55,136 nucleotides of DNA from Solirubrobacteraceae bacterium (GCA_035536255.1 DATLOP010000228.1:1-55136); one strand, 5' to 3'. Counted from the first letter of the stretch, positions 1,733 to 45,287 are shown. Numbers and translations are program-made. The notes: generated by a model not told the origin, from the sequence alone.

Positions 1733-2706
1733 GCGGCGATCTCCTTCGCCCGTGCGCCGTAGGTCCCGTGCACGACCGCCTCGCGACCTCCCGTCGCGAT
1801 GTCCTCTCGGAGGCGCTCGTCGGCAAGGAGCGCCTCCACACCGCGGCGCAGCTCGGTCGGATCGGCGACGAGAAGCGCCTTGGAGTCGCCGAACATTCGC
1901 TCGTGGTCCGGAGTCCGGGTCGCAACCATTGCCGTGCGGGTTGCCGGTAATTCCCATGTCCGCATGTTGTGATTGTCCAGGTTCTGAGGATTGACAATGT
2001 TCAGCGCCGCCCGACTGCGGTGGTAGAGGTTCGCGACCTCGCGACCGAAATGCCTACCGCGTATTACCCGGCGTTCAAGTGGCGTGCCCGCGACACGCTG
2101 CGCCCAGCCCGATCCGGCAATTCCAACGTTGAGATGCGCGAGTTCGACGAGGAACTCTTGCCGCACCGCCTGCCACTGCCCGACGAAAACGACGTCGTAC
2201 CTGAAACCGATTCCTGGCGGCCGCGCGGGATAGAGGTCGGGGTCGTAGCCAAATGGGATCACAGCGACCCTACGTGCGCCGGCCCCGCGTAGGCGCCGCG
2301 CCGGGCCATTCGACCAAGTTACGGTGAGGTCGTATGCAGGAATCGCGTCAGTCCACTCCGTCTCCGCGTAAGCGGAAAACAGGGGATCGTCGGGGTAGTA
2401 CACCGCGATTGGAACTTGCAGGTTGCGACGCAACGCCTCCACGTCCTCGCGAAGCAAAAAACGTCCCTTGATGACCAAAACCGCGTCGGCCCGCATGCGA
2501 CGCGCAAGCCCGGCGACACGTCGAGTCAGGGGAGCGGTCAGGACACGTTCGCGCCCGGCGCGCCGCGCCGCGATCAGCAAGCGGTTTCCTCCCGCCAGGC
2601 CGCGGGCTGGCGCGATCATCGCGCGGTGGCCCGAGCTCCGGAACCCCCGGACGAAGCATGCTCCGAGTCCGGCTGCATCGCGGGGAGCCACGACGAGGAC
2701 ACGCAT
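1714..2706 (-). CDS. CgeB-like / DUF3880-type glycosyltransferase
   Basis: 330-aa ORF with ...YDVVFVGQW...NLYHRSRAALNIVNPQN...NMRTWELPATRTAMV..., typical of the CgeB-family GT1-like fold. Its start shares 1 nt with the upstream stop (TGATG). Confidence 0.65.
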   Translation of the reverse strand: MRVLVVAPRDAAGLGACFVRGFRSSGHRAMIAPARGLAGGNRLLIAARRAGRERVLTAPLTRRVAGLARRMRADAVLVIKGRFLLREDVEALRRNLQVPIAVYYPDDPLFSAYAETEWTDAIPAYDLTVTWSNGPARRLRGAGARRVAVIPFGYDPDLYPARPPGIGFRYDVVFVGQWQAVRQEFLVELAHLNVGIAGSGWAQRVAGTPLERRVIRGRHFGREVANLYHRSRAALNIVNPQNLDNHNMRTWELPATRTAMVATRTPDHERMFGDSKALLVADPTELRRGVEALLADERLREDIATGGREAVVHGTYGARAKEIAACLERL

Positions 2707-3776
2707 CAGTCGCCGCTCCGCCGAAGGATCTCTTGTATGACCCGCCGGGCTGACTCCTGCGCCGCCCCGACATCGAATGCCGTGCGAGCGACGGCCAGCG
2801 CCTGTTCCCGACGTTCTCGCATCGTGACGAGATCGCGAGGCCAGGACGCTATCGCCTCGGCGAGCCGCGACGGGTAGCCGCGGTCGACGACGCCTTCGTA
2901 CGGAAGGGTCCAGCCGAGATCCGCGAGCAGGTGGCTCGCTTCCCCGACGTCAGAGGCAAGAACGGGGCATCCGCACGCCAGGTACAGCGGTAACTTCCCG
3001 GTCGTCCTTACGACTCCAACTGCGTTCGCCGTCTGGGTCGACACCGCGACGTCCATGGCGCCGACCCAATCTGCGACCTCGTCGGCCTGTACCCCGCCTA
3101 CGAACCTGCACCGGTCGATGACACCAAGGTCCTCTGCGCGTCGCTGGAGGGATGGTCGAGCCGGGCCGTCGCCGACGAAGAGGGCGCAGACGTCCTTCGG
3201 CGTCATCGTCAGCGCCTCGACAAGGTCCCAACCATAAGAAATCCCCAGACGCGGCGCAGCGAGCATCGACCCCACGAGCCCTACGACGAACCTGTGCTCG
3301 AGCCCCAGCCGGCGCCGGATGGAACCGCCATCGCAAACGCGGGCACTCAGCGGCGGAAGATCCGGGATGAACGACGTTTCCTTGCCCGGCAGGAATTCGC
3401 GGTGGCGACGCCCCCGGACAACGACGTGGTCCGCGCATCCGACGGCGAACTTCTCGCCTGCGCCCACGACGACCAGCCCGAGCCACGATCTGCTCCCTCG
3501 CGATCGCTCGAGCGCAAATACAAGGTCACCAGTGTCCAGTACGACGCGACTGCCCACCAGCTTTGCCGTTGCCGCTGCGACAGTCGTGCTTGCCCCGACG
3601 TCAACCAGGTACGTGACGCGTGGACGCTTTTGGAGCGTCTCGCGGATCGCCGTCGCGACTCCTCGGCGGCCTCGGCCGCAGGCGATGACGTCAGCGCCCA
3701 AGAAGCCGCCGAGAAGAAGGCGCCCCCGGTCGACCGCGGGTGCCGAATGCGCCAGTACAACGAGGTCGGCCCTCAT
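2706..3776 (-). CDS. Glycosyltransferase, GT4/GT1-like
   Basis: 356 aa. C-terminal half reads ...FVGDGPARPSLQRRAEDLGV..RFVGGV...MDVAVSTQ....GKLPLYLACGCPVLASDVGEA, a GT-B sugar-donor domain pattern. ATGA overlap with the upstream gene. Confidence 0.75.
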   Translation of the reverse strand: MRADLVVLAHSAPAVDRGRLLLGGFLGADVIACGRGRRGVATAIRETLQKRPRVTYLVDVGASTTVAAATAKLVGSRVVLDTGDLVFALERSRGSRSWLGLVVVGAGEKFAVGCADHVVVRGRRHREFLPGKETSFIPDLPPLSARVCDGGSIRRRLGLEHRFVVGLVGSMLAAPRLGISYGWDLVEALTMTPKDVCALFVGDGPARPSLQRRAEDLGVIDRCRFVGGVQADEVADWVGAMDVAVSTQTANAVGVVRTTGKLPLYLACGCPVLASDVGEASHLLADLGWTLPYEGVVDRGYPSRLAEAIASWPRDLVTMRERREQALAVARTAFDVGAAQESARRVIQEILRRSGD

Positions 3777-5287
3777 GCCGAGGTCACTCGCCGGTTCTCG
3801 CGCGACACGTTGGTCTTCGTTGAGAGGACAAAACCGACGATCGTCAACAGCGCAGCGCCCACCAGGACTCTCCCAACTCCGGTTCGGAAAAGGAGTACAG
3901 AGTCAGCCTCGACCTGCAAAAGCGTTGGGAGCGAAATTGCGTACATTCCGATGGCAGGGGGCGTCCACGCTCGCGCCAAATATTCGTACCAAAACCGGTA
4001 CATGACGCCAAACAGGAACATGCCGACAAAAACTGCACCAGCTCCGAAGTTGAGATAAAGCTCGCCGATGAAGGTGACAGACTGCGAGCTTGTATCATGA
4101 GCGCCTGTACGTCCCCAGTAGGTCACGGCGAACCAGTCGCCGAGCGACACCCCCGGCTTTTCCGGCCACAAGGCTCTCGGTATGAACGTCTCCGGCAGGC
4201 GCGTATACGTGTCGCCGTTTAGAAAGGGATACGCTCCGGGCGTCAAGGCTCGCGCTACCAGGAGCGAGTCAACACTGGACAGCCGCCGGGTGAATAGGCG
4301 GGCGACGTAAGTGAAGTACTGATCCGGGCGAACCACGCGGCCGGTCTCCGCGGTCACTAGCGCCTTTGGAACGGTTGCCAAGGAGGACGCCAAGGAAGCC
4401 TGCCCCGGTCGATCCCGTTCGTGTCGCAGGGCTTGGACCGCAGGGAAGGCCACAAACAGAAAAACGACCGCAGCAATCGCTATCTGGCCGGGCCGCAGCG
4501 GGCGACGTCCGTAGTGATAGGCGGCGGCGATCGTCAGAATCGCCCACAGGATCGGCGCCTTCTGCACGAAGACCAGCCCGGCTGTGAGCATTGCCATTCC
4601 GCTGATGGCGAGCAGCCACAGAATGAGCGCGCGCAGGCGTGGGGGAGCATCCTGGCGGGCGAAGACGAGATAAACGAAGCCCAGTTGCGCTCCGACCGCC
4701 CCGGTCTGGACGGGTTCCGTCAGGCCCGTTCCCGCCAGCCCTCCCCACGCGGCGTACGGCGCGAGCACGAAACACGGGAGCCCAACCGCCGTGAGCATCA
4801 ATCCAGCGGAAAGCCACCGCTGGCGACGCACCGGAGGGCGAGGCCGCGGGACGGTGTGCGCGACGTCTCGACCGATACGCCAGACGTAGCCGAGGTAGAA
4901 GCCGAGGATGCCGCAAATCGCAAGGTCGAGTGTCTGCGCGATGTACAGGTCATATGCCGCCGCGGCTCGGAAGCTGATGTCCCGCCCTGCGACGTGGCTC
5001 GACTCGAGCGCCCAACCACGCAGCGCATAGAGAGCGAGGAAGGCGGCGCCGACGAGCGTGATCGGCGACATCAGGTCCACCCGCCGCGAGAAGAGCGGCG
5101 CCGCCAGGGGGGCTAGGCAAAGGGCCGTCAGCACGACCAAGCGGACGGTTACGCTCTTGGTAGGCTCGCTCGGGGTGGGGACCGCGAATACCAGGCAGAC
5201 GGCCGTCGCAGCGGCCCCGGTCGCGAACAACAAGGCCGCGCGACGCCGCGCGCTACCGACAGTTCGCGCTGGCAGCGCGGGTCGCAC
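3773..5287 (-). CDS. wzy: Polytopic membrane protein, oligosaccharide repeat-unit polymerase (Wzy-like)
   Basis: 504 aa with more than 10 hydrophobic segments and a large late loop. C-terminal ...SVTFIGELYLNFGAGAVFVGMFLFG resembles repeat-unit polymerases. GC is visibly lower than in neighbouring genes. Sits inside a GT operon. Confidence 0.6.
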   Translation of the reverse strand: MRPALPARTVGSARRRAALLFATGAAATAVCLVFAVPTPSEPTKSVTVRLVVLTALCLAPLAAPLFSRRVDLMSPITLVGAAFLALYALRGWALESSHVAGRDISFRAAAAYDLYIAQTLDLAICGILGFYLGYVWRIGRDVAHTVPRPRPPVRRQRWLSAGLMLTAVGLPCFVLAPYAAWGGLAGTGLTEPVQTGAVGAQLGFVYLVFARQDAPPRLRALILWLLAISGMAMLTAGLVFVQKAPILWAILTIAAAYHYGRRPLRPGQIAIAAVVFLFVAFPAVQALRHERDRPGQASLASSLATVPKALVTAETGRVVRPDQYFTYVARLFTRRLSSVDSLLVARALTPGAYPFLNGDTYTRLPETFIPRALWPEKPGVSLGDWFAVTYWGRTGAHDTSSQSVTFIGELYLNFGAGAVFVGMFLFGVMYRFWYEYLARAWTPPAIGMYAISLPTLLQVEADSVLLFRTGVGRVLVGAALLTIVGFVLSTKTNVSRENRRVTSA

Positions 5288-5315
5288 GCGGCGAATCTAG
5301 CATGGGGCTACCTGC

Positions 5316-6134
5316 ATGAGCACCGACGCGAAAACGAGTTCCGAGGTGTCAACGTCGTCATCCGACGTCCCCGCCCCCGCCCCCGTCGCCGATCTCGTCG
5401 ACTTGCGGCGGTTCGTCCGTCGGCACGTCACCGTAATTCTGCTGTTTGTGGTGTCAGGAACCGCGCTAGGCGGTGTAAGAGCCGCGGCTGGGGACGAGAT
5501 ATACGAAGCCAGCACGACGATCCTCTTCACCAACGACCCGGTGGCGCGTCTGGCGGGATTCACCGATGACTTCTCCGATGTCGGCGATCCGACGCAGCCT
5601 GGATCAACCATGCAGACCCGTCTTCGGCTGATCGAGCAACGCTCCATCGCCGTTGCGGTGACGCGGCAGGTCGGCGCGGAGGAGAGCCCTGAGGAGCTGT
5701 TAGGTCGCGTTCGAGCCGAGCAGGACGTCGTTTCGTCGCTTGCGCGCGTGGTTGCGAGAGCTGACACCGCGGGCGGCGCAGCACGGCTGGCGAACGTGTG
5801 GGCCCGGACGTTCGTTTCCGCGCAGGCACGGGAACGCGAAGAAGCGTTCTCTCGAGGGATCATGGCGCTTCGGCGCGAGCTGCCGGCAACTCGGGGCCGC
5901 GAGCGCCTTCAGTTGGCACGGCGTCTCGGCCGCCTGAGGACGATTCAAGCCACGAACATCGCCCCGGTTCGATTGGTCACCGAAGCGCGTCCGCCGTCGG
6001 AGCCGGTGGGCGTGAAATGGACAGTTGGCATGGCGTCCGGGTTCCTCGTTGGCCTCGTACTTGGCTTCGGGGCGGGGTTCCTGCGGGACCGCTTGAGTGG
6101 CAGCACCACTACGATCGCGAGAGCCGGTGGCTAA
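5316..6134 (+). CDS. wzz: Wzz-like polysaccharide co-polymerase (chain-length determinant), no kinase domain
   Basis: 272 aa. N-terminal TM (VTVILLFVVSGTALGG), a long Arg/Glu/Ala-rich middle region that looks coiled-coil, and a C-terminal TM (MASGFLVGLVLGFGAGFL). This is PCP topology. Divergent from wzy. Confidence 0.6.
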   Translation: MSTDAKTSSEVSTSSSDVPAPAPVADLVDLRRFVRRHVTVILLFVVSGTALGGVRAAAGDEIYEASTTILFTNDPVARLAGFTDDFSDVGDPTQPGSTMQTRLRLIEQRSIAVAVTRQVGAEESPEELLGRVRAEQDVVSSLARVVARADTAGGAARLANVWARTFVSAQAREREEAFSRGIMALRRELPATRGRERLQLARRLGRLRTIQATNIAPVRLVTEARPPSEPVGVKWTVGMASGFLVGLVLGFGAGFLRDRLSGSTTTIARAGG

Positions 6135-6981
6135 CGCGGCGTCACCATCACGCGAAGGTGCGAGGGTCTTCGCCTTGCGTCTCCTCGCACGCGTCCTGGG
6201 CGGCCTACCTCTAGGACTCGGCCAGCATCGTCTAGCTGCGGTGTGCGCTGCGCGTCTGAGCCGGAGGCCTGGAGAGCGACACGTTCACCAAGTCCTCAAG
6301 AGCGGAGCCCATCTGTGTATCGACCTCCATGACCGCATTCAAGCGACCGCGTTCCTACTGCGCACGTACGAGCCGGAGATCGTGGAGGCGATCGTCCGGC
6401 GACTTCCGCGCGGGGGGATCTTCGTCGACGGCGGCGCAAATGTCGGGCTGGTGACATTCAGCGTCGGCTCACGGCGCCCTGACGCGACCATCCATGCGTT
6501 CGAGCCCCAACCCGCGTGCGCTGAGCAATGGCGTGAGAACCACCGCCTTAACCCTGCGGTGAACGCACATCTCGTGGAGGCGGCCCTCGGGGAGGAAGTT
6601 GGGACCGTCGAGCTCAGCCACGAAGGAGACCCCTCAAACCGGCACGTTCGCCTTTCCTTCGAGCCTGCCCTGCCCGCCGTGCCGATGACATCTCTGGACG
6701 CGTACGCCGAAGACATGCGGCTGGGGGTCATCGACGTCGTGAAGCTCGACCTCGAAGGATATGAACCGCTCGCACTTCGCGGCGCCGCACGGCTCCTTCG
6801 CGAGGGGCGGATCCGTTGTCTGGTTTGCGAACTCGTACCGGGCTACCCGGAGCGCTACGGGTTTCGCCGGAGCGAGGTGACCGCTGAGCTGCTCGAACGG
6901 GGGTTTCGGATCGAGGCATTTCCCACTCTGGGCATGCGCAGGACACAACGGGCGCCCGATCTTTTGTTCGTGCGCGACTGA
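6097..6981 (+). CDS. FkbM-family methyltransferase
   Basis: GGIFVDGGANVGLVTF...IHAFEPQP...VKLDLEGYEPLALRGA. The start is uncertain: GTG 6097 overlaps wzz by 38 nt; GTG 6127 is an alternative. Confidence 0.8.
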   Translation: MAAPLRSREPVANAASPSREGARVFALRLLARVLGGLPLGLGQHRLAAVCAARLSRRPGERHVHQVLKSGAHLCIDLHDRIQATAFLLRTYEPEIVEAIVRRLPRGGIFVDGGANVGLVTFSVGSRRPDATIHAFEPQPACAEQWRENHRLNPAVNAHLVEAALGEEVGTVELSHEGDPSNRHVRLSFEPALPAVPMTSLDAYAEDMRLGVIDVVKLDLEGYEPLALRGAARLLREGRIRCLVCELVPGYPERYGFRRSEVTAELLERGFRIEAFPTLGMRRTQRAPDLLFVRD

Positions 6982-6984
6982 GAC

Positions 6985-8223
6985 GTGTCAGATCCTGTTG
7001 CCCTAGCCGTGCTGGCGGACCTGCCGCACCCGCCGATGTCGGGAAACCATCTTCGGGACCTCCAAAACCTTCGGGTTCTGAGTCTGCTGGGTTACGACGT
7101 GCGAATTGTGGCGGGAGTCGCGCGCACCGATCCCTGCCTGGTCGGACCGATCGGGACACTGTGCGCGTCGCAGCACGTGCCAGGCTACGTGCCAGGAGCT
7201 GCGGCACGGATCCGCCGCGTGCTGGCAGTGATGCGCGGCGCACTCGCGACCCCCGCGCGGGACCCCTGGGCCGAAAACCACACGCGTGCACACTTTGAAG
7301 CGACTGTGCTCCGCGCGGCAAGACGCATTCAGCCCGACGTAATTCTCGTGCGGTCCCTGTTCGGACATCTGGTCGAGCCGCTGCGGGCGACAACCCGGCT
7401 GGTAATACTGGATGCCCATGATTCACAAGTCTTGGTCGCTCGCGCGCTAAGCACCCACGCCACGCGGTCAAGCCGGCTGGGCCTTCGAGTACGGGAGGTC
7501 GCTGCGGCCCGCGCCGAAGCGTCGTATCAACAGGCTGACGAGCTGTGGGTTCCGTCCAGACGCGAGCAGAGTTACTTTGCTCGGCGGACGCCAGGACTCG
7601 CAACGGTGATCGTCCCGAACGGCATAGAGCCGGAGCCCCTTTCGCATCCACGCGACAGCGGCAATGCGGAACTGCTTCTGATCGCGGGTTTCGGCTGGCC
7701 CCCGAATGTCGCCGCCGCCGAGACCCTCGTGGAGGAGCTCCTGCCACGGGTACGGCGGCGCCATCCCAATGCGCACGTGACGCTCGTCGGGCGTGACCTC
7801 TCGCCGCGTCTGATCGACCGGTGGCGCAACGCTCCGGTGCGCTGGTTGGGCACGGTCGAATCGACGGGGCCGTACCTCCGAAGGGCGGCGGCCGTCGTCT
7901 TTGCCCCCCCGTCGTCGGCTGCGACCGGCACGCCGCTGAAGATCGCCGAGGCGCTGGCCGCCGGCCTTCCGCTCGTCGCCACGCCGGTCGCGTCGGAGGC
8001 GCTGGGCCTCGAGCCGGGCGTCCACGCGGTCATCGATTACGACCTAGATGTCCTCGCCGACGGGATCTGCCGCATCATCGAGGATGCGTCGTTCGCCGAC
8101 AGGCTCAGGGACGCCGGCCGGAGCTGGGTGGTCGACAACCTCTCTAGCGCGAGCATCGCGGCACGTCTCAGACGCGAGTCGGTAGTAGCCTCGACTCCCG
8201 AGTCAGCACGAGCGCACCCGTGA
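6985..8223 (+). CDS. Glycosyltransferase family 4
   Basis: 412 aa; ...LLLIAGFGWPPNVAAAETLVEELLP...VTLVGRD...AAVVFAPPSSAATGTPLKIAEALAAGLPLVATPVASEALG. Confidence 0.8.
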   Translation: MSDPVALAVLADLPHPPMSGNHLRDLQNLRVLSLLGYDVRIVAGVARTDPCLVGPIGTLCASQHVPGYVPGAAARIRRVLAVMRGALATPARDPWAENHTRAHFEATVLRAARRIQPDVILVRSLFGHLVEPLRATTRLVILDAHDSQVLVARALSTHATRSSRLGLRVREVAAARAEASYQQADELWVPSRREQSYFARRTPGLATVIVPNGIEPEPLSHPRDSGNAELLLIAGFGWPPNVAAAETLVEELLPRVRRRHPNAHVTLVGRDLSPRLIDRWRNAPVRWLGTVESTGPYLRRAAAVVFAPPSSAATGTPLKIAEALAAGLPLVATPVASEALGLEPGVHAVIDYDLDVLADGICRIIEDASFADRLRDAGRSWVVDNLSSASIAARLRRESVVASTPESARAHP

Positions 8224-8858
8224 CCCTCCTACCTCGACGTGAGACAGCGAGAGAGCGATGGCGGACGTTCGTGGAAAGCCGACACACGACCTTCGCCGAT
8301 CCAGGGGCGAAGGTTCTCGACGTCGGCTGCGGCCGGTCGAAGTTTCCCGGCGCGGTTGGCATGGATCGCTTGGAGAACACGGACGCTGACGTTATTCACG
8401 AGCTGGACGTTCTCCCGTATCCGTTGGATGACAATTCGTTCGACCTGGTGATCGCTCGCCATGTTCTCGAGCACGTCGCCGCGCCGCTGGATGTCCTCGC
8501 CGAGCTCCACAGAGTAACGCGCGCGGGCGGCGAGGTAAGCATCATCAGCCCGCATTTCGCGAGTGTCACATCTTGGACTGATCCGACGCATCGACATCAC
8601 TTCAGCTCGCGGTCGTTCGACTATCTTCTCAGCGACACGGAGTGGAACTTCTACAGCAACGTTCGGTTCGAGCTGCTCGACCGCCGCATCACCCTCGGGA
8701 TGGTGCAAGGACCTGGCGGCCGAGTGTTCCCACTGCTGCGGCTTCTCGGCGTCGAGGCGCTCGTCAATCGGTTCATCGACGTGTTCGAGCGGTGGTGGGC
8801 GTTCGCACTTCCGCTTGGGCCCAAGGACCTGGTCATACGGCTTCGGGTCGTAAAGTGA
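8220..8858 (+). CDS. Class I SAM-dependent methyltransferase (Methyltransf_11-like)
   Basis: KVLDVGCGRSKFPGAVGMD...FDLVIARHVLEHVAAP...AGGEVSIISPHF...DPTHRHHFSSRSF. GTGA overlap with the upstream gene. Clear paralog of 42089-42676. Confidence 0.85.
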   Translation: MTLLPRRETARERWRTFVESRHTTFADPGAKVLDVGCGRSKFPGAVGMDRLENTDADVIHELDVLPYPLDDNSFDLVIARHVLEHVAAPLDVLAELHRVTRAGGEVSIISPHFASVTSWTDPTHRHHFSSRSFDYLLSDTEWNFYSNVRFELLDRRITLGMVQGPGGRVFPLLRLLGVEALVNRFIDVFERWWAFALPLGPKDLVIRLRVVK

Positions 8859-10021
8859 CCCTCTCGGTGGTGGCCCTGCTGCCGGCTCCACCGCACCCGG
8901 CAGCGCGGAATACGGCGGCCCGCTATTACGCGGCCCTCCTCACGGGCCTTTCGGAGATCGGAGTGTCCTCTCGCTCCCTCGCGGTCGACGACGGTAGCGG
9001 GGAAGCAGCCCGGGATTGGGTTCGGTCGGTTCCGAACGCGACGCTGGCGACGTTCGCTCCGGACGTCGTGACGCGTGACCTGGGGTCGCGCCTGCGGAGG
9101 CTGCGCGCACCGATGTCCGACGCGGCGCCTGTTGCCCTCCGCGACGCCCTCGACCGAGAACTCGCGGCCGGATACGACGTGCTGCATGTCGAGGAGGCTC
9201 ATCTCGGCCGTCTCAGCGCGGGGCGGGCGAACGCCGTCTTATCGGTGCTCCACAGCGAGGCGCGGGACAGCCGAGCCGCGTCGGGCGATGGGATGCGGGC
9301 CGCGTTGCGGCGCGCGCGAACGATCCGCGCTGAGCGCATTGTCCTGCGCATGCAGCTGAACATCCGGACAATCTCGCGCGAGCTCGCGGAAGACGTCCGC
9401 GCCGCCGGCGCAGCGGCGCCGATCACCGTTGTCCCACTTTCGCTCGGTCTGGCCGAGTATGAGTTTCGACCGAGCGGGCGTCCTCCCACGGTTGGGCTCA
9501 TAGGGTCGATGACGTGGCCCCCCAACCGCGCCGCCGCGCTGCGACTGATGAAAGATGTCTGGCCAGTCGTAATTCGAGCCCATCCCACCGCCGAATTGCT
9601 GGTAGCGGGATGGCGAGCCGACACGCTCGAGAGCGCCGCGGTGGGCCTGCCCAACGTCACGGTCCTCAGCGACCTACCCGACCATCGTTCATTCTTCGAC
9701 CGCGTCGGGTTGCTGGCGTTCCCGATCGACGTCGGGTCGGGCATGAAGGTCAAGGTGCTGGAAAGCATGGCCCTCGGAGTACCTGTCGTCACGACGCCGG
9801 CCGGCGTCGAGGGACTCCGGCCGCCGCTCGAGCGGGCGTGGTACGCCGGATCTGACGATCGCACGATGGCAGCAGCGATCGTCGAAGCGCTGGGCGACGA
9901 GGCTGAGCGGGAGGCGCGCGCGCGGCGGGCACGCCGTCTGGTAGACGAGCAGTGCTCGCCACGCGCGGTCGCGACACAGCTCGTCGAGCTGTACGAGCGG
10001 TTGAAGCGTCCCATTGCATGA
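8855..10021 (+). CDS. Glycosyltransferase family 4
   Basis: The real start is the GTG at 8855 (GTGA overlap). The track ORF from 8642 is a shadow extension. IGSMTWPPNRAAALRL...ELLVAGW...GSGMKVKVLESMALGVPVVTTPAGVEGL. Confidence 0.8.
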   Translation: MTLSVVALLPAPPHPAARNTAARYYAALLTGLSEIGVSSRSLAVDDGSGEAARDWVRSVPNATLATFAPDVVTRDLGSRLRRLRAPMSDAAPVALRDALDRELAAGYDVLHVEEAHLGRLSAGRANAVLSVLHSEARDSRAASGDGMRAALRRARTIRAERIVLRMQLNIRTISRELAEDVRAAGAAAPITVVPLSLGLAEYEFRPSGRPPTVGLIGSMTWPPNRAAALRLMKDVWPVVIRAHPTAELLVAGWRADTLESAAVGLPNVTVLSDLPDHRSFFDRVGLLAFPIDVGSGMKVKVLESMALGVPVVTTPAGVEGLRPPLERAWYAGSDDRTMAAAIVEALGDEAEREARARRARRLVDEQCSPRAVATQLVELYERLKRPIA

Positions 10022-11541
10022 ACCGGGCGCAGCGCGGATCCCTGGCTTCGCATGCCACGCTCTCGCTGTCGGCCGGCGTCCTCTCTGCCGTCGTCACACT
10101 CGCAACGTTGCCCTACATCGTCGACGGGCTAGGGCTCGCGGTGTACGGGCTTTTTGCGCTCTTGTCGCTCGCGTCCGCCTACGTCGGCGTGCTCGACCTC
10201 GGCTTCAGCTGGACTACGAGCCGCTTCGTCGCGGACGCGCTGGGGCGTGAAGACCATCAGATGCTGGATGACGTCTTGGGCGCGAGCCTGGTCCTTTACG
10301 TCGTGGTCGGGTCGTTTGGTGGTGGCGTTTTGGCGCTCGCCGCACCTGTGCTGGTGGAGGACGTCTTCAATGTTCCGCCTGACCTTCGTCGCCCGGGCGC
10401 TCTGGCGGGACAGATCTTCGGGCTCGCTTTTCCGGCTGCCATGGCACAGACGTATGCCTCAGCCGTCCTCCGGGGGGCTCAGCGGTTCGACCTCACGGCC
10501 GTCTTGCAGGCCGGGACCGCCATGGGCACGTCGGCCGGCCTGGTCGCGGCGGTCGCCGCGGGAGCCGGCATCGTCGGCGTGACCGCTACCGTCGCCGGGG
10601 TCCAATGCGTCGCGGCGGCGCTCGGGCTCGCCGCGGCGAGATGGGTGCTTCCTGGCGCCCTACGATTCCGACGGCCCAAGCGGCGGACCCTCACTCTGCT
10701 GGGCGGCTTTTCTGCCAAGGTGGCCGTAACGAATCTCGGAATGCAATTGCTCTACCTCCCTAACCGACTTGCGGTGGGCATCCTGCTTCCCCTCGCGGCG
10801 GTCGGCAACTTCACGGTGCCCTTCGCCTTAGCGCAGCGGCTGCAAATGGTTCCAGCCGCGCTTGCCTCCGCCGGGCTTCCGACGCTCACAGGGGCGACGG
10901 CCCGCGGCGAGGCAACGGCGTTCAAGACGACGTTCTGGCGTCTCCTCGCGGCCAACGGGGCTCTACTCCTGCCGGCGACGGCGCTTGTCGTCGTATGGGC
11001 TCCCACGTTTCTTGAGATCTGGTTTTCGAGCGCCCTCTCGGAAAACGCATCGATGGTTCTGCGCATCTCAGTCGTAGCGGTACTCCTGAACGCTGGCACT
11101 TCGGTGCTAGCAGTCGCATGCGACAGCGCGGGCAAGCCGGAGGTGCCCGCGCTGGCGACTGCGATTGCCGGCATCGCCAACGTCGGGCTGGCATTTGCGC
11201 TCACCGCGGCCTGGGGAATCGTCGGATCTGCCGTTGCGCTCCTAGCGAGCCTAGGTTTGCTGGTCGGAGCGATCATCGTGCTTTGGCGCCGACACTCGCT
11301 CCCGCGCCTCGACCGTCCGCCGTTCCATCCCGGACCGCGCCTCGTCGCCGGCGGGGTGCTCGCCATCTTGATCTGGGGTGCTTCCGCATGGTTCACCGAG
11401 CCGATCGTCGATGACCGCCCGTCGCTTGTCGTATGGATCTGCGTGTTCGTGGGAACGGCGTACATTGGCGTTGGAGCCGCGGTCGGCCGTGACCGACTCG
11501 CCCGCCTGCTGCCAAACCGAGAAGCCGGGGCCCGGGAGTGA
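10018..11541 (+). CDS. wzx: Wzx-type flippase (MOP/polysaccharide biosynthesis protein family)
   Basis: ATG at 10018 (ATGA overlap with the upstream stop). About 507 aa with 12-14 hydrophobic segments and Gly/Ala-rich helices typical of PST-family flippases. Confidence 0.7.
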   Translation: MNRAQRGSLASHATLSLSAGVLSAVVTLATLPYIVDGLGLAVYGLFALLSLASAYVGVLDLGFSWTTSRFVADALGREDHQMLDDVLGASLVLYVVVGSFGGGVLALAAPVLVEDVFNVPPDLRRPGALAGQIFGLAFPAAMAQTYASAVLRGAQRFDLTAVLQAGTAMGTSAGLVAAVAAGAGIVGVTATVAGVQCVAAALGLAAARWVLPGALRFRRPKRRTLTLLGGFSAKVAVTNLGMQLLYLPNRLAVGILLPLAAVGNFTVPFALAQRLQMVPAALASAGLPTLTGATARGEATAFKTTFWRLLAANGALLLPATALVVVWAPTFLEIWFSSALSENASMVLRISVVAVLLNAGTSVLAVACDSAGKPEVPALATAIAGIANVGLAFALTAAWGIVGSAVALLASLGLLVGAIIVLWRRHSLPRLDRPPFHPGPRLVAGGVLAILIWGASAWFTEPIVDDRPSLVVWICVFVGTAYIGVGAAVGRDRLARLLPNREAGARE

Positions 11542-12533
11542 GGGTGTGCTTGGCGGCGCATCCGACGGCGTTCCAGCAACCCGGCGGCGGTGAACGAGTC
11601 GCTCTGTCGCTCTACGAAGCGCTAAAGAGCCATGTCGACCAGGTTGAGATGTTCGATCCGTGGTCGACGAAGCTGCGCGACTTCGACGTCCTGCACTACT
11701 TCTCCTCGATCGGGGGCGAGCACTTCCCCGAGTGGCGCAAGCATGTTGCCCGCCTCGCGGTTACTCCCTTCATTTGGCCGGAACTGCCGAAATGGGTCGC
11801 CCTCACTCGACGGGCGCGCCGTGCTGCGCGGCGCGGGATGCGCCGCCCTGTCGCAGGGCCGTACGCCGCGGTCGACGTCCTCTTCCCGACCTCCATGCGC
11901 GAGGCGGATCTCCTCGTCCGCAACTACGCGGTTCCTCGAAACCGGGTGACCGTCATTCCGCACGGAGCGGACCTACGGTTCGCTGAGCCCGCCACTGGGA
12001 CGTTTGCCAAAACCGTGGGGGTGCCACGGTTCACGCTCTGTCCGGCGCGCATCGATCAGAACAAGAACCAACTGCGTCTTGTCCGCGCGCTCGCTGACAT
12101 GGACCTCGACCTCGTGATTCTCGGAGACGTTGCGCCAGGCTGTGAGAGCTACGCGAAGGCGTGCCGCGCTGCCGCGGGTCCTCGAACGCGGTTCTTGCCT
12201 TCGCTGCCGCATGGGTCCGAGGAGCTCCGAGACGGTTTTGTAACCGCTGATTGCGTAGTGATGCCAAGCGAGTACGAGTTGTGCTCGATGGCCATGCTCG
12301 AAGCTGGCGTTGCCGGTACCCCGCTGGCTTCTACGACGGGTGGCGGAATGGTCCAGCACCTGTCCCCATACGCCGAGTTCTTCAATCCGCGCTCTGAGAC
12401 TGAGATCGGGAGAGCTGTGCTCGCGGCCATAGCCACGGGGCGACGCCCGGGACAGTCGGAGCACTTCGCGACGAAGTTCTCCTGGGACGAGGTCGCCCGT
12501 CGCACGGTGGAGGCCTACCTCCGAGTCACGTGA
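11538..12533 (+). CDS. Glycosyltransferase family 4/GT1
   Basis: GTGA-coupled start; ...RIDQNKNQLRLVRAL...LVILGD...VVMPSEYELCSMAMLEAGVAGTPLAST. Confidence 0.75.
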   Translation: MRVCLAAHPTAFQQPGGGERVALSLYEALKSHVDQVEMFDPWSTKLRDFDVLHYFSSIGGEHFPEWRKHVARLAVTPFIWPELPKWVALTRRARRAARRGMRRPVAGPYAAVDVLFPTSMREADLLVRNYAVPRNRVTVIPHGADLRFAEPATGTFAKTVGVPRFTLCPARIDQNKNQLRLVRALADMDLDLVILGDVAPGCESYAKACRAAAGPRTRFLPSLPHGSEELRDGFVTADCVVMPSEYELCSMAMLEAGVAGTPLASTTGGGMVQHLSPYAEFFNPRSETEIGRAVLAAIATGRRPGQSEHFATKFSWDEVARRTVEAYLRVT

Positions 12534-15502
12534 TCGTTTTCACCCTGCGGCTTGCGGCTGAGCTTCTGCAGCGTTTGGTCCTGAGGATTCAGCTGCGAGG
12601 CGAGGGTGTAGCAGCGGCGGGCCAGCGCCAGGTCGCCCCGCCGCGCGGCCAGGTCCCCGAGCAGCGCCCACGGCACGAAGTTGTGCGGCTCCAGCTCGGT
12701 CGCGCGCACGAGCTCCGAACGCGCCCGCGCGTAATCCCCGAGCCGGGCATAAGCCGCCGCCCGCAGATAGCGCGTCTCCATCGACTGGCCGTTCATCGAC
12801 AACGAGTCGTGGGCCTTGGCGAGGGCACGAACCGGGTCGCTCGCCAGTGCGTGCTCGCCCTGGCTGCGGTAGTGCTGCGCGAGGACCGGCCGCACGATCG
12901 CGAGGACCGCGAGCCCTATCGCCACGCCGATGGCGGCTCGGGCGGCCAGGCGGCCCGGGCTGGCGCGGACCGATTCGCGCCCCGCGGCGCGGTGCTCGGA
13001 GACGCTCTCGGGCCGCGCAACCAGATAGGCGACGGCCACCAGCCCCAGGCCCACCGCGCCGGGCACCAGGTGCGACCAGTCGACGCTTGAGTGCGCGAAC
13101 CACGCCGAGAAGACTCCGCCCGCCGCGACCAGCATCGCGCGGTCGCCGGGACCGAGGGGCCGCGCCGCCAGCCGCCGCCGCCAGCCGGCCGCTATGGCGA
13201 GCACGAACAGCGCCAGGCCGGCCGCCCCGAGTAGCCCGAGCTCGGCGAGCGTCTGGAGCCCGATGCTGTGCGGCTGGCGGATGTCCTCGGTTGTGCGGCG
13301 CTGGAGGAAGTAGTCGCGGCTGTAGTTGCCTGCGCCGACGCCGCGGGCGGGCTGGTCGGTGAACTCGCGGACGGCGATGCGCCAGTAGTCGTAGCGGTTG
13401 CCGCCGCCCGACAGGAGGCGGTTGCGACCGCCGTCCGGGTCGAGGTTCCTGAACGCGCTGACCTCGGCCTTCGCGCGCTCGGTGATGGCGGGCGCCTTGG
13501 CGGCTGCCACGAGCACGACGCCGCCGATTAGGAGGCCCAGCGCCACGGCGCTGGCCCGCCGGGCCGAGGACGGAGGGACCTGGGACACCAGCTGGAAGCA
13601 GATTCCCCACGCCAGCCCGGCGATCGCCGCCGCCAGCAGCGCGGCGCGCGCGGCGTCCCGGATCGCCGACTCGTACGCGGCGGACGATGCGCCGGCGCTC
13701 TCGTAGACGTCGAAGAGCGGCCCGTTGAGCGCGACTACCGGGCCCAGCACGCACACCATCAGCCACGCCCGCCGCTGGCGGCCCGGGACGAAGGCCAGGA
13801 CGGCGACCACCGAAGCGATGAGGGCGAACGCGACGCCGCGCGCCTGCGACAGCGCGGCCAGCGCGGCCAGCGCGGCCGCTCCCGCTGCGCCGACGCCCGC
13901 CAGCACCGAGTTTCGCGCGTACTGGGCGAGGGCGACGAACGGCCAAATGCCGACGACCAGGAAGAGCCCCTGGCTGTTGACGTATCCCAACGGCTCAAAC
14001 AGCCGACCGCTCTGGAAGAGCGAGGGGGCGTCGCCCCACAGCGCCACCGCCAGGATGTAGCCCGCGACCACCAGCAGCCCCGCCGCTCCGCCGGCCAGCG
14101 CCGCGCGGATCGCGCCGTCGGTGTGCATCAAAAGTAGTGCGGTACCGAGGAACGCCGCGTACAGGACCCAGCGGTCGGCATCGACCAACGCCCGGTCCGC
14201 CGACTCGGCCCATGTGGTGGAGAGGAAGGCAAGGACGGCGAGCGCGACCAGACCGGCAAGCGCCGCGAGTCCGAGCCGCCCTGGCCAGGGCTCGCCCGCC
14301 ACGAAGAGGCCGAACATCAGCGCCAGGATCCCGAGCGCGATGGGGCCCCAGACGGAGAAGCTGTAGAAACCCTCGACCAGCGGGCTCGCGCCGCATGCGA
14401 AGCCCAGAACGGCGGCGAGGACGGGACGCACCGGCAGGCTCGGGCGCACGGCGCGCGCGACGGGGGCGGCGTCGGACTCGGCGCTGCTCTGGCCGCCGTC
14501 CGCCACCGCCACCGCGCCGTCGTCCAGGATCAGGATCGTCGCGCCGGCCAAGGCGAGGCAGAGCACCGCGATCCAGACGAGCGGGGCCCCGCCCAGCTCG
14601 CTGCCCACGATCGCCAGGACCGCAAGGCTGGCCTGCGCGGCGCCGAGGGCGAGCGCGACGAGCGGGGCGGAGCCGAGCTGCCGCAGGAGACGGTGGGTCA
14701 TGTGATCCCGCCCGCCGGTCATGATCGACACGCCCCGGCGCCGGCGCGAGATCGTCACCAGCGTGGTGTCGGTCAACGGCAGGCCGACCAGCAGCACGGC
14801 TCCGAGCCCGACCCACTCCGCTCCGTCGTTGAGGGCCGGGACCGCCATCGCCAGGGCTCCGACCAGGAAGCCGACGGGCATGCTGCCGCCGTCGCCGAGG
14901 AAGATCCGCGCCGGCGAGCGAGCGTTGAACGGGAGAAAGCCGAGGCACGCCCCGGCGAGCGCCAAAGCCAGCGCCGCCACCTCGTACTCCCCGGTGGTGG
15001 CCGCCAGGCCGGCGATGCCCAGCGAAGACGCCGTCGCGCAGGACGCCGCCGTCCCGTCCATGTTGTCCATCAGGTTGAACGCGTTGACCACCGCGACCAC
15101 CCACAGGACGGTGACGGCGAGGTTCACCAGGTCGCTGGAGACCACGGACCACCCGAGCCCGAGCGACCACAGGGCGGCGGCGAGCGTGGCCTCGAGCAGC
15201 ACGCGCAGCGAGGGGCGCACCGTGCGGCGGTCGTCGACGGTCCCCAGCGCGCACAGCGCCAGGGCCCCCGCGACCAGCGGCCACAGCTCGCCCAGCCGGC
15301 CGGCCACGCCGGCGGCCAGCGCGAACGCCGCCACCACCGCCAGCCCGCCGAGGTACGGCGTGGGCGCGGCGTGGCTCTTGTAGCCGACGGGCTGGTCCAG
15401 GAAGGCGGTCCGCAGCGCCAGGCGCCGGGCGAGCGGCGTCAGCGCCAGCGCCCCGACGGCCGCGATCCCGAAGGCCGCCGCTAGCCGCAGCTCAACCGGC
15501 AC
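12515..15502 (-). CDS. Fusion protein: WecA/MraY-type polyprenyl-phosphate sugar-1-phosphate transferase + O-antigen ligase/Wzy_C-like polytopic module + C-terminal TPR repeats
   Basis: Single uninterrupted 995-aa ORF. Residues 1-325 carry GTVDDRR, VVNAFNLMDNMDG and FLGDGGSMPVG. Residues about 355-830 carry NRYDYWRIAVREFTDQPARGVGAGNYSRDYF...QPHSIGLQTLAELGLLGAAGLALFVL. Residues about 880-975 carry YLRAAAYARLGDYARARSELVRATELEPHNFVPWALLGDLAARRGDLALARRCY. Confidence 0.85.
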   Translation of the reverse strand: MPVELRLAAAFGIAAVGALALTPLARRLALRTAFLDQPVGYKSHAAPTPYLGGLAVVAAFALAAGVAGRLGELWPLVAGALALCALGTVDDRRTVRPSLRVLLEATLAAALWSLGLGWSVVSSDLVNLAVTVLWVVAVVNAFNLMDNMDGTAASCATASSLGIAGLAATTGEYEVAALALALAGACLGFLPFNARSPARIFLGDGGSMPVGFLVGALAMAVPALNDGAEWVGLGAVLLVGLPLTDTTLVTISRRRRGVSIMTGGRDHMTHRLLRQLGSAPLVALALGAAQASLAVLAIVGSELGGAPLVWIAVLCLALAGATILILDDGAVAVADGGQSSAESDAAPVARAVRPSLPVRPVLAAVLGFACGASPLVEGFYSFSVWGPIALGILALMFGLFVAGEPWPGRLGLAALAGLVALAVLAFLSTTWAESADRALVDADRWVLYAAFLGTALLLMHTDGAIRAALAGGAAGLLVVAGYILAVALWGDAPSLFQSGRLFEPLGYVNSQGLFLVVGIWPFVALAQYARNSVLAGVGAAGAAALAALAALSQARGVAFALIASVVAVLAFVPGRQRRAWLMVCVLGPVVALNGPLFDVYESAGASSAAYESAIRDAARAALLAAAIAGLAWGICFQLVSQVPPSSARRASAVALGLLIGGVVLVAAAKAPAITERAKAEVSAFRNLDPDGGRNRLLSGGGNRYDYWRIAVREFTDQPARGVGAGNYSRDYFLQRRTTEDIRQPHSIGLQTLAELGLLGAAGLALFVLAIAAGWRRRLAARPLGPGDRAMLVAAGGVFSAWFAHSSVDWSHLVPGAVGLGLVAVAYLVARPESVSEHRAAGRESVRASPGRLAARAAIGVAIGLAVLAIVRPVLAQHYRSQGEHALASDPVRALAKAHDSLSMNGQSMETRYLRAAAYARLGDYARARSELVRATELEPHNFVPWALLGDLAARRGDLALARRCYTLASQLNPQDQTLQKLSRKPQGENDHVTRR

Positions 15503-15641
15503 GAACCTTCAGTCCGCCGACCGGGTCGCGCACGATCGGGGTAGAGTTCGAACCATCAGGATTCAGGTTAGTCATGGGCTGGGGATCTCGTCGCGCCGCC
15601 GGGAGCTGATCGCCCTCGGAGCCGTCGCGGTCACGCTCTGC

Positions 15642-16067
15642 GTGCCTGCCGGGGCCGCCGGCCAGGTGACCTTCGACCCGGACACGCCCGCGGGACGCGA
15701 GTACGCCATCCCCCTAGACGACGCGCGGCGTCAGTACGGGGCCGGGGCTGCCGACACGGGCCGATCCGCGCAGTCTGGCCGATCCGCCGGGGGCGGGTCG
15801 GCACAGGGGCAGCCCCCCGCCGCGCCGCTCTTCGGCGAGGGCATCGAGCCGCCCGCGCGTCGCACCCCGCGCAGCGTTCCGGGATCCGGATCGGCCTCGC
15901 GCTCGCCCGCCGCCGTCGCCGCGGCGGCGGACAACCGCCGCGCGGCGGTCGAGGCCGTCGGCGACCCGGGGTCGGGAACCGCCCTCGCGCTGGGCGCCGC
16001 GGTAGCGGTCCTGCTGCTCGGCTCCGGACTCGGCGTGGTCCTGCGCCTTCGCAATCGCGACGTTTGA
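15642..16067 (+). CDS. Small Ala/Gly/Ser/Pro-rich exported protein with a C-terminal membrane anchor
   Basis: The canonical GTG ORF gives 141 aa and ends ...GTALALGAAVAVLLLGSGLGVVLRLRNRDV. The frame is open upstream and encodes a signal-peptide-like SSRRRELIALGAVAVTLCVPAGAAG with no ATG, GTG or TTG. The true start may be CTG 15579. Confidence 0.5.
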   Translation: MPAGAAGQVTFDPDTPAGREYAIPLDDARRQYGAGAADTGRSAQSGRSAGGGSAQGQPPAAPLFGEGIEPPARRTPRSVPGSGSASRSPAAVAAAADNRRAAVEAVGDPGSGTALALGAAVAVLLLGSGLGVVLRLRNRDV

Positions 16068-16120: not shown

Positions 16121-17131
16121 TTGCGCTATCTGATCACGGGCGGGGCGGGGTTCATCGGGTCGCACCTGGCCGACGAGCTGCTGGCCCGCGGAGACCGCGT
16201 CCAGGTGATGGACGACCTGTCCACGGGGTCGATGGACAACATCCGCCACCTCAAGGACAACCCGCGCTTCGACTACGCGATCGAGTCCGCGGCCGATCCG
16301 CGGCTGGTCGCCGAGCTGGTGGACGAGGCCGACGTCGTCTTCCACCTCGCGGCTGCCGTCGGGGTCGACCTGATCGTCGAGAGTCCCGTGCGCGCCATCG
16401 AGACGAACGTCCACTGCACCGAGGTCGTCCTGACCCACGCCAACAAGAAGAAGAAGCCCGTGTTCGTCGCCTCCACGAGCGAGGTCTACGGCAAGAGCCA
16501 CAAACTCCCGTTCCGCGAGGACGGCGACCTGGTGCTCGGGCCGACCTACAACGGACGCTGGTCCTACGCGTGCTCCAAGGCGATCGACGAGTACCTCGCG
16601 CTGGCCTACTGGAGCGAGCGCAAGCTGCCGGTGGTCATCGCCCGGCTGTTCAACACCGTCGGGCCGCGACAGACCGGCCGCTACGGGATGGTGATCCCGA
16701 GCTTCGTGCGCCAGGCACTGGCCGGTCAGACGCTCACCGTCTACGGCGACGGCACCCAGCAACGCTGCTTCTGCCACGTGCGCGACGTGGTTCGGGCCAT
16801 GGTGGACCTGATGGCGTCGGACGACGCCTACGGACAGATCTTCAACGTCGGCAGCCAGGAGGAGATCTCGATCGGCGAGCTGGCGCGCCGGGTCGTCGAG
16901 GCCGCGGGGTCGGAGTCCGAGATCGGCCTGGTGTCCTACGAGGACGCGTACGCGCCGGGCTTCGAGGACATGGTCAGGCGCATCCCCGACATATCGAAGA
17001 TCGAGAGCTACATCGGCTGGCGGCCGACCACGCCGCTGGGCGCGATCCTCGAAGAGGTCATCGCCTACCACCAGGCACCGCCGTCGGGGGCGACGACCGG
17101 GTTCGAGTCCGACCCGGCGCCGGTCGCCTAG
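16121..17131 (+). CDS. NAD-dependent epimerase/dehydratase (UDP-glucuronate decarboxylase / ArnA-C-like SDR)
   Basis: TTG start; MRYLITGGAGFIGSHLADELL...ASTSEVYG...YACSKAIDE (YxxxK)...RLFNTVGPRQ. Confidence 0.85.
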   Translation: MRYLITGGAGFIGSHLADELLARGDRVQVMDDLSTGSMDNIRHLKDNPRFDYAIESAADPRLVAELVDEADVVFHLAAAVGVDLIVESPVRAIETNVHCTEVVLTHANKKKKPVFVASTSEVYGKSHKLPFREDGDLVLGPTYNGRWSYACSKAIDEYLALAYWSERKLPVVIARLFNTVGPRQTGRYGMVIPSFVRQALAGQTLTVYGDGTQQRCFCHVRDVVRAMVDLMASDDAYGQIFNVGSQEEISIGELARRVVEAAGSESEIGLVSYEDAYAPGFEDMVRRIPDISKIESYIGWRPTTPLGAILEEVIAYHQAPPSGATTGFESDPAPVA

Positions 17132-23001: not shown

Positions 23002-23262
23002 ATGCCCAAGAACGTAAAGGCAAAGGGAGGGGGCGAGATCGCCCGGACCAGGATCTCCTCCAAGCATCAGGTGACGATCGCCAAGCCCCCGTTCGACCAG
23101 GCCGGCTTCCGCGCCGGCGAAGAGCTCATCGTCCGCGCGCTGGGCCCCGGGCGGGTCGAGCTGACCGGGCTCGACGCGGTCTTGGACAGGCATCGCGGGA
23201 GGCTTTCGACCGGCGGCGCGCTGCGCCGGACGCTCGACGACCTGCGCCGCGAGTGGGACTAG
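23002..23262 (+). CDS. vapB: AbrB/SpoVT-MazE-fold antitoxin (VapB-like)
   Basis: 86 aa; RISSKHQVTIAKPPFDQAGFRAGEELIV is a swapped-hairpin AbrB-type motif. Overlaps the downstream PIN gene by 10 nt. Confidence 0.75.
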   Translation: MPKNVKAKGGGEIARTRISSKHQVTIAKPPFDQAGFRAGEELIVRALGPGRVELTGLDAVLDRHRGRLSTGGALRRTLDDLRREWD

Positions 23263-26548: not shown

Positions 26549-26568
26549 GTGTAACACCGGTGTTACAC
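26549..26568. promoter_or_regulatory. Perfect 20-bp palindrome GTGTAACACCGGTGTTACAC, 8 nt upstream of the antitoxin ATG
   Basis: Checked by hand to be exactly self-complementary. It overlaps the TAA stop of the upstream epimerase gene. No U-tract follows it. Confidence 0.6.
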
Positions 26569-27528: not shown

Positions 27529-27562
27529 GGGCCGGTCAGGTTAGTCACTAGTGTTTCGCCGC

Positions 27563-45251: not shown

Positions 45252-45287
45252 GCCAGACGAAGGCGCAACTACACTCTGCGCCGCTCC

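Follow-up and report, generated by a model that had tools for sequence, protein, structure and literature searches.

The window analysed here, a 55,136-nucleotide stretch of DNA from a Solirubrobacteraceae bacterium (GCA_035536255.1 DATLOP010000228.1:1-55136), contains a gene for a 995-residue protein in which a WecA/MraY-type phosphoglycosyl transferase (PGT), a WaaL-like Wzy_C module and TPR repeats are joined in one chain. The reading preferred here, which is given a probability of about 0.55, is that this fusion performs both membrane-bound ends of an undecaprenyl diphosphate (Und-PP) glycan pathway, and that the glycan is transferred to a protein, for which a small membrane-anchored neighbour is the prime candidate. 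Three points are strongly supported, namely that the protein has two intact active sites on opposite faces of the membrane, that the second of these sites resembles WaaL-type en bloc transferases, and that the transferase and the Wzy_C module are co-inherited as a pair, either fused or as overlapping genes.

The fusion gene is a single open reading frame (ORF) that runs without interruption from 15502 to 12515 on the minus strand, with AAGG a few bases 5' of its start and a GC content at third codon positions (GC3) of 0.93, in line with the other coding sequence of the window. In Pfam, the protein matches Glycos_transf_4 (PF00953) at residues 74-220 (100.6 bits, E = 1.1e-28; cut-off 27) and Wzy_C (PF04932) at residues 618-763 (50.9 bits, E = 1.9e-13; cut-off 31.7), while TPR_2 and TPR_8 lie above their cut-offs at about residues 890-980 and TPR_1 is matched as well. 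A preliminary description of this DNA had proposed a 995-residue frame with three modules, the first of which was said to have its DD, NxxNxxDxxDG and GDGGS motifs intact; the uninterrupted frame is confirmed, both catalytic domains and the TPR repeats score above the Pfam cut-offs, and the motifs are all present. Every NCBIfam match of the fusion protein is under the curated equivalog cut-off, and for this reason its assignments are kept at family level. Residue conservation was taken from an alignment of 42 fusion-family members, which are 43-50% identical to the window protein, and in which D90-D91, N140, N143, D146, D149, G203-S207 and H745-S746 (in QPHSIGLQTLAELGLLG) are invariant in 42 of 42.

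An AlphaFold2 (AF2) model of the full-length protein, built from 42 homologues, has a mean predicted local distance difference test score (pLDDT) of 84 and a predicted TM-score (pTM) of 0.83, and its disorder is confined to the linker (residues 336-352, pLDDT <50) and a few short loops. The helices were taken from this model, hydropathy segmentation being too coarse, and they amount to 26 predicted transmembrane (TM) helices, with 11 in the transferase (residues 3-334), about 14 in the middle module (residues 358-828) and one extra helix. With the N-terminus outside, the predicted topology places the transferase motifs in cytoplasmic loops and both the 669-746 loop and the TPR repeats on the outside, and lysine and arginine in the short loops number 16 per 129 residues on the 'in' side vs 3 per 92 residues on the 'out' side. 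The extra helix would return the chain to the outer face, which would make the TPR domain extracytoplasmic. This predicted arrangement, which puts the transferase site on the inner side and the loop of the ligase on the outer side, agrees with the opposite-face logic of the preliminary description, in which initiation was expected on the cytoplasmic face and ligation or polymerisation on the outer face.

The N-terminal module carries K42, D90-D91, N140xxN143xxD146xxD149-G, G203-D-G-G-S207, D245 and H267xxH270, all of which are invariant in the family alignment save for H267 and H270 (41/42). BLASTP aligns it with Escherichia coli WecA at 25% identity over 266 residues (E = 1e-21), and this alignment pairs D90-D91 with D90-D91, NAFNLMDNMDG with NAFNMVDGIDG (WecA D156/D159), FLGDGGS with FMGDAGS and RDHMTHRLL with RQHIHHLIM; mutagenesis of WecA has reportedly established the functional importance of the aligned WecA residues. 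In Foldseek searches, the model resembles MraY (6oyh/8cxr/5ckr; E about 3e-6, TM-score 0.69-0.71) and human DPAGT1 (TM-score about 0.6). The domain score for PF00953, the catalytic aspartate motifs with the histidine loop and the MraY/GPT fold place the module in the MraY/WecA superfamily, and with E. coli WecA (Rfe) and the MraY/GPT enzymes it also has 11 predicted helices and the DD, NxxNxxDxxDG, GDxGS and HxxH motifs in common. Unlike in WecA, the C-terminus runs on into a second enzyme as opposed to ending in the cytoplasm.

For the middle module, a separate AF2 model of residues 350-880 (pLDDT 84, pTM 0.89) has WaaL 7TPG (7tpg_B) as its sole significant match in the PDB (E = 4.5e-5, probability 1.0, target TM-score 0.57), with RodA far weaker at rank 20. 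Ligases and oligosaccharyltransferases (OTases) carry a H[NSQ]x9Gxx[GTY] motif, and the E. coli WaaL residues concerned are R215, R288, H338 and D389 (10.1101/2022.10.31.514599; PMC3643930). An arginine pair binds the phosphate of Und-PP, R215/R288 in E. coli WaaL and R191/R265 in Cupriavidus metallidurans WaaL. In the fusion family, H745-S746-x9-G756-xx-G759, which runs into the next helix, fits the motif in 42 of 42 members; R695, R703, R708 and E739 are invariant in the same loop as H745-S746 (42/42), and R555, R695, R703, R708 and D808 are invariant at predicted outside positions. The module resembles the WaaL enzymes of C. metallidurans (7TPG) and E. coli, family GT121, in its Wzy_C score, its WaaL-like GT-C fold, the histidine motif in a large loop predicted to be outside, and invariant arginine and aspartate residues in the predicted outside loops. 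It is unlike the solved WaaL in having no detectable sequence similarity, an extra helix and TPR repeats, and it has about 14 helices, as opposed to the 12 reportedly seen in the WaaL structure. The acceptor must differ as well, as it is established knowledge that lipid A-core is absent from the host lineage; to our knowledge, Actinomycetota have neither lipopolysaccharide (LPS) nor lipid A-core. With relatives in Thermoleophilia, a class of these LPS-free Actinomycetota, strict functional membership of WaaL is unlikely.

A parallel in domain order is found in the O-OTases WsfB (Paenibacillus alvei S-layer) and PglL (Neisseria), for which Wzy_C followed by C-terminal TPR is the reported architecture (PMC2943079), and in the fusion TPR_2 and TPR_8 are likewise C-terminal to Wzy_C. 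PglL has the ligase histidine and two arginine residues in common with WaaL (PMC3643930). WsfB and PglL transfer glycan en bloc from Und-PP, and the same is proposed for the Wzy_C module of the fusion; unlike it, these O-OTases are not fused to an initiating transferase. Another example of a WaaL-type ligase joined to an enzyme that acts earlier in the pathway is WadA of Brucella and Mesorhizobium, a bimodular GT25 plus GT121 O-antigen ligase (PMC10920833), whose partner is a soluble-type GT25 adding the last core sugar, as opposed to a polytopic initiating PGT, and which is without TPR. A ligase or O-OTase rather than a polymerase is favoured for the Wzy_C module, because the histidine motif is invariant, WaaL is the only significant fold match, separate Wzy and Wzx candidates are present, and the module is conserved beside variable glycosyltransferases.

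A homologue search of 5.8 billion proteins gave 688 matches, of which the best 120 were examined. These are 950-1075 residues long, with identities of 42-57% (for the most part 43-50%) and, in nearly every case, a query coverage of 92-100%; PF00953 and PF04932 occur together in all except one, and nearly all the proteins come from Thermoleophilia that are uncultured. In databases these homologues are labelled 'O-antigen ligase family protein' or 'UDP-GlcNAc:undecaprenyl-phosphate GlcNAc-1-phosphate transferase'; the architecture is one of modules from known families, common and automatically annotated. The preliminary description knew of no characterised example of the three-part architecture and suggested a search for the same domain order elsewhere. 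The order does recur in these best 120 homologues, so the architecture itself is not rare; the other part of the claim still stands, as no characterised PGT-ligase fusion was found in the literature, the coverage of which was incomplete, so that absence is not proof. Nor was any published description found of a polytopic initiating transferase with a WaaL-like module and TPR, or of the small partner family described below.

When one genome per species was scanned, 183 relatives were found and 79 loci were kept, almost all of them in metagenome-assembled genomes labelled Thermoleophilaceae, Solirubrobacteraceae or Solirubrobacterales (Thermoleophilia), and BLASTP matched the fusion gene in 74 of these. 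One intact fused ORF is found at 25 loci (including L036, discounted below), whereas at 10 loci a WecA-like gene of about 340 codons is directly followed by a Wzy_C-TPR gene of about 650 codons, and at three the two genes are a few kb apart; the remaining loci are incomplete or have the N-terminal part alone. A neighbour-joining tree built from the Wzy_C region places a split clade between two fused clades, and at least one fusion or fission event has occurred. When 1.84 billion 50%-identity representatives were searched with residues 350-995, 618 matched at E <=1e-30, and among the best 150 of these 20 are of about 1000 residues vs about 124 of 430-690, which makes the unfused Wzy_C-TPR protein the commoner form. 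The window protein is, by comparison of the sequences, the fused form of a conserved overlapping gene pair, and covalent fusion is not a requirement, because close relatives use two overlapping genes.

A conserved small protein encoded beside the fusion gene had been overlooked in the preliminary description. In the window, it has a signal peptide, the sequence DPxTPAGREYAIPL, an ectodomain rich in Gly/Ala/Ser/Pro that contains LFGEGIEPP, and, at the C-terminus, a TM anchor followed by an RLRNR tail, while the family motif is (E)PGVHVDPxSPAxxEYxxPLxxAR, with LFGxGIxP in the ectodomain and a basic tail after the anchor. The ectodomain of about 100 residues is 19.5% Gly, 16% Ala, 14% Ser and 10% Pro. 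With a hidden Markov model, the small protein was detected in 34 of 80 sources, in most cases no more than about 100 bp from the Wzy_C-TPR gene, and a database search gave at least 280 homologues, all of which are 'hypothetical' and have no Pfam domain. All three long contigs that were picked via the small protein alone have PGT/Wzy_C(-TPR), small protein and epimerase in this order, with the enzymes fused in two and split and divergent in one. In the window gene, the in-frame signal peptide precedes the first ATG/GTG/TTG. An ATG at 15574 is well spaced from a Shine-Dalgarno sequence, but its frame is off by 1 nt and it adjoins a G run at 15576-15578. This points to an error in the homopolymer, a genuine frameshift or a non-canonical CTG or ATC start. 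It has been described that pglL genes often adjoin target genes (PMC3643930), and in a comparable manner an anchored, secreted Gly/Ala/Ser/Pro-rich protein adjoins the module in the window and in many loci, though not in all. On speculative grounds, this small membrane-anchored protein is the prime acceptor candidate, or it may be an accessory subunit. A second secreted protein, encoded by ORF 17213-19063 (+), was considered as a general acceptor and rejected, as a homologue is found in no related locus. This protein of 616 residues contains 3.1 tandem copies of a 282-bp (94-residue) Ig-like unit at 85% identity (array 17566-18437), with weak Ig_2 and ZirU-family matches and linkers containing Pro, Ser and Thr.

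In the proposed pathway, the WecA/MraY-type module would act on the cytoplasmic face, where it would transfer a sugar-1-phosphate, by homology probably N-acetylhexosamine-1-phosphate, from a UDP-sugar to polyprenyl phosphate, and the adjacent short-chain dehydrogenase/reductase (SDR) epimerase would probably supply or modify this first sugar. Judging from gene context, separate glycosyltransferases and methyltransferases would then extend the glycan, a Wzx-like protein would flip it, and its polymerisation may fall to a separate Wzy-like protein. On the outer face, the WaaL-like module with its arginine/histidine loop would, from its fold, motif and topology, take the completed glycan from Und-PP and pass it en bloc to a hydroxyl of the acceptor, with the outward TPR domain most likely binding the acceptor. 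This acceptor would be a protein and, more speculatively, the small Gly/Ala/Ser/Pro-rich neighbour. In such a 'first sugar plus final transferase' cassette, the sugar at the reducing end would stay matched to the transferase as the neighbouring set of glycosyltransferases varies.

Several points weigh against the preferred reading, beginning with the fact that the activities of all family members are predicted, from sequence and from models. The transferase module, unlike WecA proper, stays far under the cut-off of the WecA equivalog TIGR02380 (87.3 bits vs 326). Searches of PDB sequences with the Wzy_C part, either as a single sequence or as a 25-sequence profile, gave no match at E <=10, and the likeness to WaaL is one of fold, with R703 aligned to E. 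coli WaaL R288 only in a non-significant hhalign comparison (family profile, E 0.4). Sequence cannot separate WaaL from O-OTases, while PglL_A, a motif that separates PglL from WaaL, is a criterion drawn from Gram-negative PglL proteins (PMC3643930); PglL_A (PF15864) is absent from the Pfam matches of the fusion protein at E <=1, which is a further difference from PglL. The placement of the TPR domain outside hangs on one predicted helix with a pLDDT of about 55-80. Finally, the hydroxyl residue of the DPxSPA motif in the small protein is not invariant, and no copy of the small protein lies within 10 kb in the split-adjacent clade or in seven fused loci, which means that it cannot be the sole acceptor.

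The lack of a detected PglL_A motif and the many loci without the small protein would also fit an alternative in which the two catalytic roles are the same and the acceptor is peptidoglycan, a secondary wall polymer or a membrane glycolipid, with the TPR domain docking to the wall or to assembly machinery. In its favour, WaaL, the sole significant structural match, itself uses a glycolipid acceptor, the Wzy and Wzx candidates in the cluster fit a polymer over a short protein glycan, and it has been suggested by the CAZy authors that capsule may be ligated to peptidoglycan by GT121 members of Gram-positives (PMC10920833). However, a C-terminal TPR is present in the O-OTases WsfB and PglL (PMC2943079), a conserved, secreted and anchored low-complexity protein adjoins the gene in many lineages, and no LCP or lipid-anchor synthesis gene was found among the conserved neighbours of the related loci. 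A non-protein acceptor is less probable than a protein, yet it is a serious rival. The preferred protein acceptor is favoured because the lineage is without LPS, the combination of Wzy_C and TPR is WsfB/PglL-like, and an anchored low-complexity protein is encoded next door. A more elaborate form of the protein-acceptor reading, which is put forward tentatively and is unlikely to be right in every part, is that Thermoleophilia build a protein-anchored analogue of O-antigen, in which the WaaL-like module would attach an Und-PP-linked polysaccharide to the small single-pass protein. The TPR domain would read DPxSPAxxEY/LFGxGIxP, the glycan would sit on the invariant Tyr or the Ser-rich stretch, and the fusion would match the reducing-end sugar to the ligase and might recycle the carrier lipid locally.

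Within the glycan cluster of the window, only the fusion gene and the SDR epimerase gene are widely conserved across the 79 loci. The epimerase is present in 66 of these, usually directly adjacent to the module, while the GDP-mannose dehydratase of the window has weak SDR-type matches in 21 loci at about 27% identity and all other cluster genes are matched in 0-7 loci only; the Wzx-like candidate of the window is not conserved in the related loci. This pattern bears on the role of the Wzy_C module, which the preliminary description had taken to be a polymerase, a cell-wall ligase or an O-OTase; the latter two are favoured and the first is disfavoured by the histidine motif and by a separate Wzy. 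A Wzy-type repeat-unit polymerase, in which case the fusion would couple initiation with polymerisation, is quite improbable, even though some polymerases too are matched by Pfam Wzy_C, the fold class of the GT-C clan is common to SEDS and inverting polymerases (PMC10920833), and there is a weak fold match to RodA. Inverting polymerases have Glu/Asp at the position of the ligase histidine (PMC10920833), as opposed to the histidine found here in 42 of 42 members, which does not agree with CAZy GT125-129. Neither does the module co-vary with the glycosyltransferase set or serve as the only polymerase candidate, as it is kept at 40-50% identity across loci with wholly different, unrelated sets, unlike repeat-unit-specific polymerases, and separate Wzy-like genes are found in the window and at the related locus L035, where an O_anti_polymase gene adjoins the Wzy_C-TPR gene.

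Other neighbours of the module are recurrent elsewhere but not universal, and they include GT4 enzymes, Wzx, a secreted GH5-like protein of about 400 residues, and a glutamine-dependent asparagine-synthase homologue at 24 loci (L002 17480-19414, L048 3643-5496, L042 14354-16282 and 21 others). The nearest NCBIfam model of this homologue is the XrtA/PEP-CTERM amidotransferase, under cut-off, and its presence near the module parallels that of wsfA in the S-layer glycosylation cluster of P. alvei (PMC2943079). At L001, a WbaP-type monotopic PGT (Bac_transf, 560 residues; 13040-14722) lies directly downstream of the fusion gene, so this locus has two different initiating enzymes by one ligase-like module. 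A different arrangement is seen at L054, L059, L064 and similar loci (about 6500-15300), which have no Wzy_C-TPR gene and contain, in this order, genes for an InlB-B-repeat surface protein, the epimerase, a 340-residue WecA-like protein and a GT4 enzyme, with flanking genes for a Wzz/ParA-type tyrosine-kinase-like protein and for a PMT_2 GT-C enzyme; this is probably a paralogous pathway with the same kind of initiating enzyme.

It may also be considered that one half of the protein is catalytically dead and that the fusion is regulatory or scaffolding, with the ligase half sensing or recruiting, or the PGT half only binding undecaprenyl phosphate. That all NCBIfam equivalog cut-offs are missed speaks for this, but the known catalytic residues of both halves are invariant or kept in 41 of 42 members across sequences that are 43-50% identical, which points to purifying selection on both active sites and makes a dead half very improbable.

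The relation between fused and split forms can be followed at the junction itself. At the split loci (L030 at about 10996-11023, L048 at about 10930-10957, L045 at about 10978-11005, and others), the WecA-like gene terminates in the conserved GACTCCTGA, which reads ...GW.P.S.DS-TGA, and the Wzy_C-TPR gene starts with ATG or GTG about 27 nt upstream of this end, giving a 28-nt out-of-frame overlap that is seen in short-read assemblies too. With this conserved overlap, one indel would turn the split form into the fused form; in the fused proteins, the W.P motif is followed by a Pro/Ala/Arg-rich linker of variable length and sequence. An apparent fusion within the split clade, L036, was set aside, as its N-terminal part reads a non-WecA frame and it is probably a frameshifted long-read assembly. 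That the fusion in the window is likewise an artefact of assembly or sequencing, in which a lost base merged two overlapping genes, is hardly credible. In its favour, one indel could fuse genes with an overlap of about 28 nt, and the small gene next door has a likely 1-nt indel at a distance of only about 75 nt. Against it, the full-length ORF, complete with a real linker, is found in at least 120 independent assemblies of several origins, the homologues can be aligned with the window protein over its whole length, and the fused forms make coherent clades.

Table 1. Coordinates of the fusion gene, its parts and the associated genes in the window.
Feature	Position	Strand	Remarks
Whole fusion gene	12515..15502	-	GTG start at 15502, stop at 12515; 995 codons plus stop
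Phosphoglycosyl transferase module, residues 1-334	14501..15502	-	11 predicted TM helices; WecA/MraY fold
Linker, residues 335-357	14432..14500	-	variable, disordered, predicted cytoplasmic; split point in relatives
WaaL-like GT-C module (Wzy_C), residues 358-828	13019..14431	-	about 14 TM helices
Large extracytoplasmic catalytic loop (predicted), residues 669-746	13265..13498	-	78 residues; Arg/His motif residues
Extra TM helix, residues 849-876	12875..12958	-	AF2 helix 849-886, hydrophobic segment, positive-inside count
About three TPR repeats, residues 890-983	12554..12835	-	Pfam; PDB-profile and Foldseek matches to TPR proteins
Small partner gene	15574..16067 (frame 15384-16067)	+	divergent from fusion gene; between fusion gene and epimerase
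NAD-dependent SDR sugar epimerase/dehydratase	16121..17131	+	Pfam; NCBIfam matches all under cut-offs
Wzx-like flippase candidate	9952..11541	+	529 residues, polytopic; NCBIfam WZX_like 1.3e-8, under cut-off
Wzy-like repeat-unit polymerase candidate	3773..5287	-	504 residues; weak Pfam O-ag_pol_Wzy/O_anti_polymase; NCBIfam glyco_rpt_poly, XrtY_assoc_Wzy under cut-offs
Variable glycan cluster	995..12533	.	methyltransferases, five GT1/GT4-type glycosyltransferases, Wzy-like and Wzx-like genes; without conservation beside homologues elsewhere

In addition to the genes in Table 1, the glycan genes of the window include GT2 glycosyltransferases and the GDP-mannose dehydratase. The first 12.5 kb of the window have a GC content of 0.66-0.67 and a GC3 of about 0.76, as opposed to 0.72-0.77 and >0.9 downstream, and this step in composition lies exactly where the fusion gene has its 3' end. 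The block at 1-12.5 kb is probably a variable glycan cluster that has been horizontally exchanged and now adjoins a conserved core. Further glycan genes form a second set at 26563-50203, which comprises two SDR epimerases (26563-27528 (-) and 27551-28489 (+)), a UDP-glucose/GDP-mannose dehydrogenase (31430-32710 (-)), a 733-residue Polysacc_synt_3 flippase-like protein (44589-46790 (+)) and GT4 enzymes (46787-48004 and 49076-50203). Between the two glycan regions, a PIN-domain toxin-like protein is encoded at 23253-23699 (+). Three large ORFs without a Pfam match are found at 36440-38053, 39628-40938 and 53107-54696.

The fusion is noteworthy for glycobiologists, although it overturns nothing. 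A polypeptide with both the first, cytoplasmic-face active site and the last, outer-face active site is a natural 'Rosetta stone', which shows that this WecA-type and this WaaL-like transferase serve the same glycan in an abundant and barely cultured class of soil actinobacteria. The fusion would be a compact target for cryo-electron microscopy that covers both steps, glycoengineering could use it as a 'start and conjugate' part made of one gene, and a comparison of the fused forms with their split sister forms could reveal whether coupling affects flux or carrier-lipid recycling. For the biology of the Thermoleophilia, the finding points to en bloc glycan transfer in an LPS-free lineage, with a concrete candidate acceptor. 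If a protein-anchored analogue of O-antigen is indeed built by these bacteria, this would be, as far as is known, the first en bloc O-OTase system described in Actinomycetota, and it would represent a new way to anchor a surface polysaccharide.

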